DNA of 64,000 nucleotides, taken from Botryllus schlosseri. Its lineage: Eukaryota. The translations under genes were made by a program, and so were the position numbers. The stretch is from NCBI GenBank assembly GCA_051294905.1, contig CM119372.1, positions 20,710,001 to 20,774,000 on the forward strand, in the 5' to 3' direction. Within the stretch, counting starts at the first letter, position 1; each line of letters starts with the position of its first letter. The notes under the pieces are model-generated. The model had not been told where the DNA came from. It made no database searches and worked only from the letters and a program-made list of their open reading frames with translations. Positions 16,134-19,488 of this stretch are shown here, one piece after another.

Positions 16134-19100
16134 TTAATTTTTTCTTGGGTCGCTGTGAAAGCGATTGAGACCACGGAAAGATGCATCGGCGTCGTATCTC
16201 ACTTCCATCAAACCAGGTTGATGAAGATAATGAGCATGCGTATCTTTACAACATTGTCTCGAGCGGTCAAAAGAAATCGGATCAGTCAGGAATTCGTTTC
16301 GATGCTCATCGCAAAAATACCGTGGAAACCAATTCTCATAATCGCGGTAAAATTGGTTTCTTTTCTCGAAGATGAGAATGTCATCGAGTGGGGCTGAATG
16401 AGCGATGAAAAACGAGTTGATATCCATCGAAAGTAGCATGAAGCAGTCGGCGCGAAAATATTTGCATAAACAATCATAAAAAAATGACAACATCCGTAAT
16501 TTGACATTTTACCAGAACGATACTTGAATGCAGTTATCTTGCTCGATCTTTTGAGGGTGCTTCGTTATTTCAAATAGATCTGTGTTTAATTGTTCACACT
16601 TGACGAAAAAACGATCCTCCACATTTGCGTTCAATTCACTTTTATCACAGAACGTAGTTTGTTCGAATTTACGCGGATTCATTAACTCACGATCATAACA
16701 AGAATTCGCAGCGAGTTTTTGTGTCAGCGCAATAATCTCCAGGTTAGGATCGCGATCCCCAGCACGTCGACAGTCTGAGACATTTTTCGCAAAGTTGTCA
16801 AAACATGTCTTTTTTGTGAATTCGACAGCCTCATGAATTTTGGATATAACCAACCCGTGATCTACATACCATTTGATCAAGTCGGAGGTTAGCAAGATTT
16901 TCTTACCGCAGTACGACGCAACCAACATGTCGGTGGGTTTACTGGGTGATTTCCGATCTACAGCAAGCTGATTCATGTGACTTTTCACGGTATCGCGAGA
17001 CACTGTGGTATTTTTGAATATCGGACGGAGTTCAGCGAATCGCTTTTTCGAATGTGGTCGAGTACAAATATCAACCAGCAAACAACCAAAGAATGTACCA
17101 GTCATTACCATCTCCATCAATTTTTGTGCGGTGACAGACTTGGTTCGAGTCAATTGTGGTTGAATACCATTAAGATATCGCACAATATCAGGATTTCTCT
17201 TCTTCTCAATATTCCACTCACATTCCCATTTACATACAACCTGATAATTGAGACTTTCGTAATAATCATGAATGCGTTTACCTCGCTCTCGACGTACTGG
17301 GTCATCACATCCGAATCTGCAATCGTGAGCGTGAAAATCACATCTAAGGAACAATAAGATTATCCCTTGTCCGGCCGAATTACGATAAAACCCATCAGGT
17401 CGATAATTGCGCATGCCCACATGAATTTCAGGTCCGTTAAAAGCGTGGTGAACATGCACCTTGTGAACATGAGAATACCAATTCGTCCACTGGGTTACAG
17501 TCTCTGAGCATTTCGGCGCGGTCTTGACAGGTTTGAATTTAGTACAATCGGCGTTGATTGGTTGCCAACGTACCGCGAATCCGGTTGGACTTGGTCGACT
17601 TAAAGCATACAGATAGAGTGAGTCGCTGGTCAAACTTGTTATATGTTGCGCAATCTGTGCATTTTCCTTATAGAAATGTTCTTTTATTCGAGTTACACCT
17701 GGTTTTGGGTGTCGATGGAAAATGATCGATGGTCCACCCACTAAATTATCCCCGAATAGCGAAAACAGATCTTTGTTTGTCGTTGAACATTGCGAAATCC
17801 CGCGGGATGCTGTTAAAAAGATGTCTCGATACAACCCCGAGCAGGCAGACCGCATCCTTGAATATATCAACATTGAATTGACTTTTGAAAGATTGGAATT
17901 GTTTTTCTAACCCCTCAATGAAGTAATGAGTATCGATTGCGTTGTACCATTTGAGATAATCACGTAAAGTAGTCATTTTGTTATCGTTCCAAACCTTCAA
18001 ACAGTTTTCATATTCTGATGTTGATATATTGCAACCTTTTAGCGGGTTGTAAAACTCGTCGTGTCTAGGAAGACTCGAGTTATCCAACTTTTCCAAACTA
18101 GTCAGAAACTGGTGCGGGAAGTGAGCTTTAGCGGTGCTACATTTGAAGACTTCTGAATATGAATCATACGAGAAATCGGGTGTCAAGTAATTCACAATGT
18201 CCAAGAATTGAAGTCTGCTGGTCCTCATTGAGAGAAATTTGTTACCACGTTTCAGTACACTAAGATTGTCGTCAACGAGAAAACCAAACAAGTACGCTTT
18301 GAGCCAGTTCCAGTCATACCGACCGCCATTGAATGATAACACAGGAATTTGACGTAAATAACTCATAAACTCCACTTGTAAACGTTCAAGGGGTATTGGG
18401 TGTTTTGAAGGATCGAGCACTTTCATTTCGGTAATTTTCGATCTGAGCATGTCCAGGTAGGGTCGATATTCTGTGAGTGACAGTCTGAATGATTCACTTT
18501 GAATATCATGAAAATGGTCGAACATTTGTGCGCACAAATCGTTTGTATCACCACTCGAGACAATTACATGCGACTCCAAGTAACCTTCCACATTAGACGA
18601 TATGCTAACAGAGATGGGGATGTTCTGGTGCTCTCGCAAAGTTTTTGAGGTATCGTGAGTATCATACACACTCTCTATACTGAACGCGATACGGTATTTG
18701 AAATAACGAAGTTGATGGGGAACGAACACCCCTTCTAGATCAAGTTTTTCAAAGATGTTCAGAGGAGGTGTATACACACCGCCCGGGAACGCTTCAACGG
18801 GACCCGTTACACATTTGTGTCTGGTCAATTCATGCTGCAAATTAAACAATCGTTGACAAACAGCACATCTATAGGTCTCCACATAACGGTTCATGTTAGT
18901 AATGAGACAAAAATGGCGGTCCTCTAAATGTAAGTAAACAGCTTTCGCTTCATAGGTACTACGCCGGAGTGCACAAGCTTTACCCCCGGTCTTGGTGTAC
19001 ACGAATATGGCGACATTAAACAAGACCTCGATATCATTCAACATATCAAGAGTTACGCCAGCTTCCACACTGACACCATACACCGAAGTGAATTGTTGAG

Positions 19101-19488
19101 CCATTTCCTTTGTATCTTTTCCTAGCGAGTGACCAATACAGCGAAAAGCACACAGATTGTCGTTGTACCGATGTCGATTTTTTCGATGGGTAAATGTAGA
19201 GATACATCTTGATTGAGTGAGGCCTGGGGGTATTTTAATACCGACGCAGCCAATCAACATACCATCGGTAGGGTATACATAGAACTGTGGCTTGATCAGA
19301 CTCAACGATTGACCAGCTTGGAAAACACCCGCCCACATACTGTTCAAGTCGCGAATATTATACACACGGCTACTGTTCACTACATACGATTTCACCACTT
19401 GACAGTTCTGAGCTGTAATTTGTTGGTGTTGGTTGTCAATCTCTGGCGGCTCATTCTCGTCCTCGTGATTTCCCCGTCGTCGACTCAT
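16134..19488 (-). pseudogene. Protein-primed family B DNA polymerase (pPolB) with vOTU-like, zinc-finger-like and VSR-like inserted domains; disrupted
   Basis: Three ORF pieces (17746-19488, 16509-~17775, 16134-16508) join across a frameshift near 17775 (FAMFNDK / KDLFSLF..NLVGGPSIIFHR) and an in-frame TAA at 16509-16511. Exo II (FNGGRYD), Exo III (YNAID) and KLRML are recognisable; the C-terminus is lost after PGL. Confidence 0.92.

Follow-up and report, generated by a model that had tools for sequence, protein, structure and literature searches.

A working protein-primed polymerase is the defining trait of Polintons, which are known as self-synthesising elements. There is one such element in the DNA analysed here, a 64,000-nt window of the Botryllus schlosseri genome (assembly GCA_051294905.1, contig CM119372.1, positions 20,710,001-20,774,000), and its polymerase gene belongs to a family that appears to be conserved without its catalytic residues. 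All coordinates given below are positions in this window. Several described systems come close to this arrangement. In polinton-like viruses, Tlr1 and transpovirons, an inactivated protein-primed DNA polymerase (pDNAP) domain is fused to a superfamily 1 helicase and the exonuclease domain has been lost, according to PMC5499653. The same paper lists other inactivated homologs of family B polymerases, namely the C-terminal half of Pol epsilon, an archaeal family, poxvirus F12 and herpesvirus UL8. For nematode Polintons, 10.1101/2023.08.22.554363 proposes that the polymerase pPolB alone was replaced on a resident backbone by recombination.

Two forms of Polinton are distinguished below. Type A is a co-resident form with a canonical polymerase, and type B is the form with substituted motifs, whose polymerase homolog is referred to as pol*. 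At least 3,153 of 3,406 bases are matched at 90-100% identity in 32 places of the 495-Mb genome, the window and its twin included. Twenty polymerase loci were read, which comprise the window copy, a twin that is 100% identical to it and 18 sisters. Two canonical polymerase copies (L030 and L033) were also read, and the gene-by-gene comparisons of the element cover three type B elements and one type A element.

An earlier note on this DNA, made from its letters alone, had described a recently integrated Polinton with an apparently dead polymerase, and had pointed to altered strings at Exo I, at motifs A, B and C and in the VSR-like insert. These strings are present as reported, and they fall on conserved columns when the protein of an intact sister (P0001) is aligned with 38 near-full-length homologs and then with 149. 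The counts at motif columns come from the 149-homolog alignment and take in only sequences with a residue at the column concerned. At Exo I, the window copy and all 18 sisters have Ser in place of an Asp that is found in 125/125 homologs. In motif A, Thr stands at the position of an Asp found in 147/147 homologs, and Asp stands at the Asn position. The Gly of motif B, found in 128/129 homologs, is replaced, and motif C reads D-I-N-S where the second Asp is kept in 113/115 homologs, the two exceptions being partial sequences whose ends lie at this column. The columns of the KxY motif are gaps in the type B protein, and residues 1223-1295 of the type A protein, which make up the thumb, have no counterpart there. 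The pol* frame ends about 90 residues past motif C, and the missing C-terminal end that had been reported is real.

Other parts of the protein are kept. They include the Cys and His of the vOTU domain, the C2H2 finger, the Asp residues of Exo II and Exo III, the K...N..Y of motif B and most conserved residues of the VSR-like insert. A search with P0001 returned 5,471 proteins at E <= 0.001, the best of which is 39% identical (E 4e-236). An AlphaFold model of P0001, with a mean predicted local distance difference test (pLDDT) score of 82.6 and a disordered stretch over its first 90 residues, keeps the exonuclease fold, the palm and the fingers. Compared with solved structures, this model best matches phi29 DNA polymerase (E 4.8e-9) and then other family B polymerases. 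The phi29-like fold emerged from this fold search; a search of solved structures by sequence with the type B protein gave only chance-level matches. Pfam family PF03175 has no match at E <= 10 in two intact type B proteins. With regard to the polymerase that characterizes Polintons, the window element thus has a clear homolog, with catalytic motifs substituted and PF03175 unmatched. Because the motif strings fall on conserved columns and the modelled fold is phi29-like, pol* is a genuine homolog of pPolB, but one from which both metal-binding aspartates, the KxY motif and the thumb are missing.

The substitutions are common to the sisters. In all 18, Exo I has Ser, motif A reads T..D, motif C reads D(I/V)NS and the VSR-like insert reads FLRCDFH. 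Motif B reads AANSCYD in 17/18, and the frame ends at the same place in every sister. Base divergence among type B sisters reaches ~9%. There is a single open frame in 11 of the 18, nine of these frames having 1129-1135 amino acids (aa) and two having 1209-1213 aa, and the remaining seven sisters carry one or two breaks apiece. The earlier note would have taken sister copies with intact catalytic motifs and an open frame as a refutation of its claim; open frames were found, and intact motifs were not, since the motifs are substituted in all 18.

The frameshift near 17775 and the stop at 16509 that had been noticed in the window copy are likewise real in the assembled sequence. The frameshift is a 2-bp deletion at ~17774 (17773..17775), the stop is a TAA in frame at 16509-16511 and coincides with a 6-bp deletion, and both lesions are absent from all 18 sisters. 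It had been proposed that the polymerase was damaged before this copy inserted. This stands for the motif substitutions, which must predate the window insertion because they are common to all 18 sisters. For the frameshift and the stop, which are carried only by the window copy and its twin, the proposed timing is unsupported. With its two private breaks, the window copy is probably defective for pol* function too.

The further claim that the polymerase has decayed was not borne out for the type B lineage, and the words "dead" and "decayed" appear to apply only to the two private breaks of the window copy. Among the nine frames of 1129-1135 aa, the ratio of non-synonymous to synonymous substitution rates (dN/dS) is 0.18-0.34 at a synonymous divergence (dS) of 0.15-0.28, as calculated for the 33 pairs that are not near-identical. 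By domain, type B dN/dS is 0.17 in the vOTU and zinc finger part, 0.17 in Exo, 0.23-0.24 in Pol and 0.58 in the N-terminal remnant. Stops arise from 4.84% of single-base changes in such a frame, and therefore 10-15 stops would be expected per 200-300 neutral changes.

A count of derived states guards against imported variation by admitting only states that are absent from both canonical copies. Derived states common to 2-6 of 17 type B copies comprise 71 synonymous and 84 non-synonymous changes (a ratio of ~0.31), where ~269 non-synonymous changes would be expected if they were neutral. Derived singletons comprise 101 synonymous and 198 non-synonymous changes (~0.52), which fits expectation because part of them would arise after insertion. 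Fixed differences between all type B copies and both canonical copies amount to 87 synonymous and 129 non-synonymous changes (~0.39). The changes private to the window copy are 15 synonymous and 22 non-synonymous (~0.39), and its polymerase pieces give dN/dS values of 0.08-0.32 against three sisters, so that the window branch appears to have been mostly constrained and its two breaks to be late. Together, the ratios show purifying selection on the predicted pol* protein in the type B lineage. Because the sisters share the substitutions, keep open frames and are under purifying selection, the motifs that had been taken as dead are better read as the mark of a conserved, probably non-catalytic homolog than as decay. 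In the canonical pair, Exo gives a dN/dS of 0.05, Pol gives 0.08, and the vOTU and zinc finger part gives 0.15. By comparison with this one type A pair, constraint on type B appears to be relaxed about three-fold in Exo and in Pol; the vOTU part shows no such relaxation.

There is also evidence that type B elements have moved recently. Three sisters (L008, L009 and L010), whose open frames are only 0-3 bases apart, were found on three different contigs, where they are flanked by the duplications CCCGTC, CACGTC and GTGGTG. Two other type B elements have further 6-bp duplications of their own. Since near-identical copies are found on three contigs with different duplications, the sequences around them show that elements with an open pol* frame have integrated recently and independently.

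A co-resident form with intact motifs, for which the earlier note had suggested looking, was found. A genome search with a canonical homolog gave 36 scored matches from 350 first-look candidates, with frames of 1212-1306 aa that reach the C-terminus of that protein and with no stop in 29/36. Over the searches made, 350-428 places in this genome came up as first-look candidates for copies of the polymerase homolog. The two copies that were read, L030 (1295 aa) and L033 (at least 1211 aa), have AFDIES, LDSNSLY, KLAGNSSYG, MDTDS and SKNY, and the thumb is present. L030 also exceeds the Pfam cut-off for PF03175 (30.7 vs 25.8 bits). An alignment of type A with type B protein over 1,062 residues gives 76% identity. 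The L030 element is 96.1% identical to the window over 8497-15796, from the protease-like gene to the ATPase gene, and 80.7% identical in the polymerase gene. For ten backbone genes, dS between type A and the window is 0.04-0.13, whereas in the polymerase gene dS between type A and type B is 0.75. This difference indicates that the polymerase module considerably predates the backbone on which it sits, and that the two module types are exchanged by recombination.

Over their first ~55 bases, the type A copy and one type B copy (E004) have the same terminal sequence. The type A termini are also related to those of the window element, and all elements begin AGTAGT. Three copies that are near-identical in the polymerase gene (E008, L034-L037) differ in their outermost termini, and one of them has arms that are 97.9% alike. 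Termini thus seem to turn over faster than the body of the element, and arm identity is a doubtful clock for insertion age.

Exchange might also have occurred on a smaller scale. Two patches of the window pol* gene (~18016-17901 and ~16858-16709) are 96% and 90% identical to the canonical copy, whereas the same patches in other type B copies are 84-93% and 77-87% identical to it. In addition, the window copy keeps the Tyr of Exo III, which is Cys in 18/18 sisters. These features suggest either short gene-conversion tracts or an early-branching sublineage.

An 80-residue N-terminal segment that is conserved in homologs is present or absent regardless of the state of the motifs. Copies L030, L033, L012 and L015 represent the four combinations, all with open frames, and the window copy is of the form without the segment. 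PMC11161782 places a terminal-protein domain where this segment lies. The idea that loss of the segment is tied to inactivation was rejected, since canonical copies without the segment and substituted copies with it both have open frames.

We favour, with moderate confidence, the reading that the window contains a recent insertion of a type B Polinton whose pol* is conserved but non-catalytic and which is copied in trans by type A. It builds on what the copies themselves show, namely that the substitutions are lineage-wide, that the predicted frame is under purifying selection, that type B has integrated recently and that open type A copies are present. In the type B lineage, the polymerase gene would have turned into a conserved non-catalytic homolog. 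Types A and B would share one backbone of capsid, integrase and ATPase genes, onto which the polymerase module may have been shuffled by recombination. The type A polymerase, supplied in trans, would then copy type B genomes. A polymerase supplied by a helper had been the proposal of the earlier note, and it is plausible for the type B lineage. The pol* protein itself might have a non-polymerising role as a scaffold, an end-binding protein, a deubiquitinase or protease, or a nuclease, or possibly in helper interference. Perhaps type B elements are even obligate satellites that use pol* to bind shared ends or helper proteins, to capture the helper polymerase and perhaps to damp helper replication, although we advance this only tentatively. 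If this were true, satellite type B would represent a live intermediate between self-synthesising Polintons and polymerase-less polinton-like viruses.

Several points weigh against copying in trans by type A of elements with a selected pol*. Replication in trans is something that we infer from co-residence, the shared backbone and the related termini, and pol* is known as a gene sequence, not as a transcript or protein. The comparison of constraint between types rests on one type A pair, and the constraint on pol* (~0.2-0.3) is far weaker than that on the capsid gene (0.03-0.05). With two type A copies read, selected variation might have been imported from unsampled canonical subfamilies, and the window copy does carry type-A-like patches. 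Its outer termini match the type A copy for about 7 bases and then diverge, and blastn of window positions 8146-8496 against the type A element gives no match. Finally, a form with canonical motifs exists without the 80-residue N-terminal segment, and the priming protein is therefore ambiguous.

Other explanations account for some of these observations. If the type B polymerase gene were a functionless, decaying pseudogene, unmaintained and spread through a helper or host polymerase, there would be no surprise in the replaced catalytic residues at Exo I and at motifs A, B and C, in the lost KxY motif and thumb, in the frameshift and stop of the window copy or in the failure of Pfam to recognise the protein. 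However, 11 of the 18 sisters retain one open frame despite base divergence of up to ~9%, when 10-15 stops would be expected under neutrality, and the ratios of 0.18-0.34 between pairs and ~0.31 for within-lineage changes make such a pseudogene quite improbable. The low dN/dS could instead be a borrowed signal, in that gene conversion from canonical copies would cause it to reflect the canonical gene rather than pol*. The patches of the window copy that are 96% and 90% identical to type A, its retained Exo III Tyr and the recombination of modules are all in keeping with this idea. Outside the patches, however, identity to type A is fairly even (72-89%) in all 17 copies, derived states absent from both type A copies still comprise 71 synonymous and 84 non-synonymous changes, and the substituted motifs are retained in all 18 sisters. 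We give a borrowed signal only a small chance of being the answer. It might also be supposed that pol* still polymerises with other residues, for example with the Asp two positions downstream in motif A and the first Asp of motif C. In favour of this, SLY is still present in motif A, with an Asp now standing where the Asn would be, motif C has its first Asp and motif B its K...N..Y, and the palm and fingers are modelled with high confidence. Nevertheless, the lost residues are invariant (the motif A Asp in 147/147 homologs) or nearly so (the second Asp of motif C in 113/115), the KxY motif and the entire thumb are absent, and constraint on Exo and Pol is about three times weaker than in the canonical pair, all of which leaves this activity very improbable.

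Another explanation is that type B needs no Polinton polymerase, being copied by the host or moved by integrase-only cut-and-paste, and that pol* is retained for some unrelated function. Many DNA transposons are able to multiply although they encode no polymerase. The type B integrase is open with a dN/dS of 0.09-0.19, and the 6-bp duplications point to integrase-type insertions. On the other hand, the strong constraint on the capsid, ATPase and protease-like genes argues for a virion stage that needs genome copies, and the canonical form is abundant on the shared backbone. We therefore regard this explanation as unlikely, though worth keeping in mind. A narrower doubt concerns the window copy, which might be an ordinary intact type B member whose frameshift and stop are assembly errors. 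Elsewhere, these lesions are found only in the 100% twin, whose duplication may itself be an assembly product, and the deletion sits in an A-rich stretch. Neither lesion is a simple change in homopolymer length, however, and three DNA runs with depth at this place yielded no contig of at least 97% identity with extra letters at 17774, which is weak evidence given the short contigs and the repeated family. At the base level, the DNA-run contigs neither confirm nor contradict the two private lesions, and we consider assembly error improbable as their source.

The element that carries this gene spans positions 8146-23730 (15,585 bp) and has the termini AGTAG..CTACT. Ends of the form 5'-AG..CT-3' are a Polinton trait according to the original descriptions, and the window ends agree with it. 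The element has the long terminal inverted repeats, the 6-bp target-site duplication and the rve integrase by which Polintons are recognised. The earlier note had also reported a single difference between the 712-bp arms and a perfect duplication. The difference was located at 8728/23148, and GCAGGC was confirmed on both sides. Each of five further copies has its own 6-bp duplication.

The window copy and its flanks, from 1799 to at least 31353 (at least 29,555 bp), are repeated 83,353 bp upstream at 100% identity (contig positions 20628446-20658000). Either a tandem segmental duplication took place here very recently or the assembly contains a false duplication. Its interpretation as an independent insertion that shares the lesions was rejected, since identity continues through both flanks for at least 29.5 kb, and for this reason the twin gives no evidence that the broken copy moved. 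This duplication of the locus, a nested foldback insertion and an interrupted gene were absent from the earlier account. The canonical-type sibling lacks the foldback at this point. There are three other inverted repeat pairs in the window (36185-36294/49341-49450, 27731-27843/52153-52265 and 25070-25171/46585-46686), each of 100-113 nt with 74-88% complementarity.

The coordinates of the element's features are collected in the table below. As had been claimed, the integrase, ATPase and capsid frames are unbroken, and no stop appears when they are read against three sisters and one canonical-type copy. The integrase matches PF00665 with 59.5 bits (cut-off 32.6) and PF00385 with 35 bits. The P-loop ATPase, which is the probable packaging ATPase, has family matches that lie near or under their cut-offs, and its dN/dS is 0.03-0.11. 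A Pfam scan of the capsid frame gave no match, and its assignment is a lead from a feature look-up with a protein language model, where it scored 0.98 to clusters that have PF21738 on 14-30% of their members; the ten best feature matches (0.98) fall in one family or clan. Among the compared copies, capsid dN/dS is 0.03-0.05. A Pfam scan of the 172-aa frame also gave no match, and this frame may encode an adenain-like maturation protease, to judge by eye from a His..Asp..Gln..Cys spacing. By their position, the four frames that follow the capsid gene might be further virion or morphogenesis genes. For the unnamed genes of the window element and of its type A sibling, Pfam returned nothing usable.

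Two genes differ in their state between the types. A 188-aa gene of unmatched family is whole in the type A element, where it lies between the ATPase and polymerase genes, and it is reduced to ~70 codons with 50-56% identity in all four type B elements read. The interrupted gene differs from its 297-aa counterpart in the sibling by the loss of 1 bp near 21197 and the gain of 2 bp near 21101. Two of the other type B copies hold just the first ~77 codons of this gene, and one is without it.

Features of the Polinton and its polymerase homolog, given as positions in the window
Feature	Position	Strand	Remarks
Target-site duplication	8140..8145 (left), 23731..23736 (right)		GCAGGC, 6 bp
Left terminal inverted repeat	8146..8857	+	712 bp, begins AGTAG, short direct repeats inside
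Putative maturation protease frame	8941..9459	-	172 aa, open; no stop against sisters
Candidate major capsid protein, double jelly-roll type	9333..10631	-	432 aa, open
Four open frames	10610..12942	-	126, 147, 225 and 301 aa; no family match
Integrase, rve core and C-terminal chromodomain	13124..14203	-	Open; assigned by Pfam
Two small open frames	14130..14902	-	135 and 126 aa; no family match
P-loop ATPase	14903..15514	-	Open; AAA_14 E 2.6e-5; Pox_A32 E 0.0079, under its cut-off
Remnant of 188-aa gene	15858..16114	-	~70 codons left; ~51% identity to the whole gene in the canonical-type sibling
pPolB homolog (pol*)	16134..19488	-	ATG 19488-19486, stop 16136-16134; frames of 597, 465 and 124 aa
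Motif C	within 16442-16395	-	MDINS
Motif B	within 16730-16677	-	KLAANSCYD
VSR-like insert	within 17366-17316	-	FLRCDFH
Motif A	within 17648-17598	-	LTSDSLY
Exo I	within 18696-18661	-	AFSIES
Nested foldback element	19930..20508		Arms of 277 nt, 88% complementary, 25 nt spacing, CCGGA on either side
Interrupted gene	20676..21570	-	Single 297-aa frame in the canonical-type sibling
Two open frames	21751..22887	+	120 and 217 aa; also in the canonical-type sibling; no family match
Right terminal inverted repeat	23019..23730	-	712-bp arm

An RNA run contains 77 reads that match this stretch, each only in part and running on into unlike sequence. They lie mostly at 15376-15737, between the ATPase gene and pol*, with next to none on pol*, and no conclusion on expression is drawn from them. 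Loose ends of poly(A) type are found near 15494, just past two minus-strand AATAAA signals. Sequencing runs filed under three other organism labels contain 27-31% of the sampled words.

If pol* is read as a conserved non-catalytic homolog, then a multiplying lineage keeps a polymerase gene without its chemistry, beside a canonical form on the same backbone. Such a pair within one genome would allow one to ask what a Polinton polymerase protein does besides polymerising. The pair also bears on how a self-replicating element becomes dependent, a step for which, to our knowledge, only comparisons with the distant polinton-like viruses and transpovirons have so far provided a basis for inference. 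For annotation, the locus serves as a warning that finding substituted catalytic motifs in one copy is no proof of decay.

Defective interfering genomes and satellite viruses rely on a helper replicase and usually delete the replicase gene. Type B would resemble them if, as proposed, it depends on a helper that is its close relative and has ends to match, and it differs from defective interfering genomes in that its replicase homolog is kept open and appears constrained. The canonical Polinton/Maverick pPolB, presented in PMC11161782 as a terminal-protein domain followed by vOTU, exonuclease and polymerase, shares the order of its parts with pol*, and the two are connected by homology (E 4e-236) and by a phi29-like fold. 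Like canonical Polintons, the window element has terminal inverted repeats, a 6-bp duplication, an rve integrase and a putative double jelly-roll capsid gene. Unlike canonical pPolB, pol* has replacements of the Exo I Asp, the motif A Asp and Asn, the motif B Gly and the motif C Thr and second Asp; it is also without the KxY motif and the thumb, and the window subtype is without the 80-residue N-terminal segment as well.

The inactivated proteins described elsewhere differ in other ways. Like the helicase-fused pDNAP of PMC5499653, pol* is a protein-primed polymerase homolog with mutated motifs that is retained in a Polinton-related element. Unlike that protein, it lies in an element that keeps the exonuclease fold and the rve integrase, and a form with a canonical polymerase is co-resident. 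Pfam scans of the window element and of type B proteins found no helicase families. The nematode case (10.1101/2023.08.22.554363) is similar in that the polymerase module has a separate history and a VSR-type pPolB insert is described there too. Both polymerases are taken as active in nematodes, whereas one of the two exchangeable modules appears to be non-catalytic here. For the C-terminal half of Pol epsilon, the archaeal family, F12 and UL8, listed in PMC5499653, a polymerase fold is likewise kept under selection without catalytic residues, and a structural role is presumed. Those are fixed cellular or viral genes, whereas pol* is one of two alternative modules in a multiplying element. In the literature searched by full text, no description was found of a conserved inactive pPolB in an integrase-bearing Polinton. 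As judged from the genes compared here, pol* appears to be set apart from known inactivated pPolBs by an element that keeps the exonuclease fold and the integrase, is free of a helicase, and belongs to a family in which inactive and active modules are found on one backbone in one genome.

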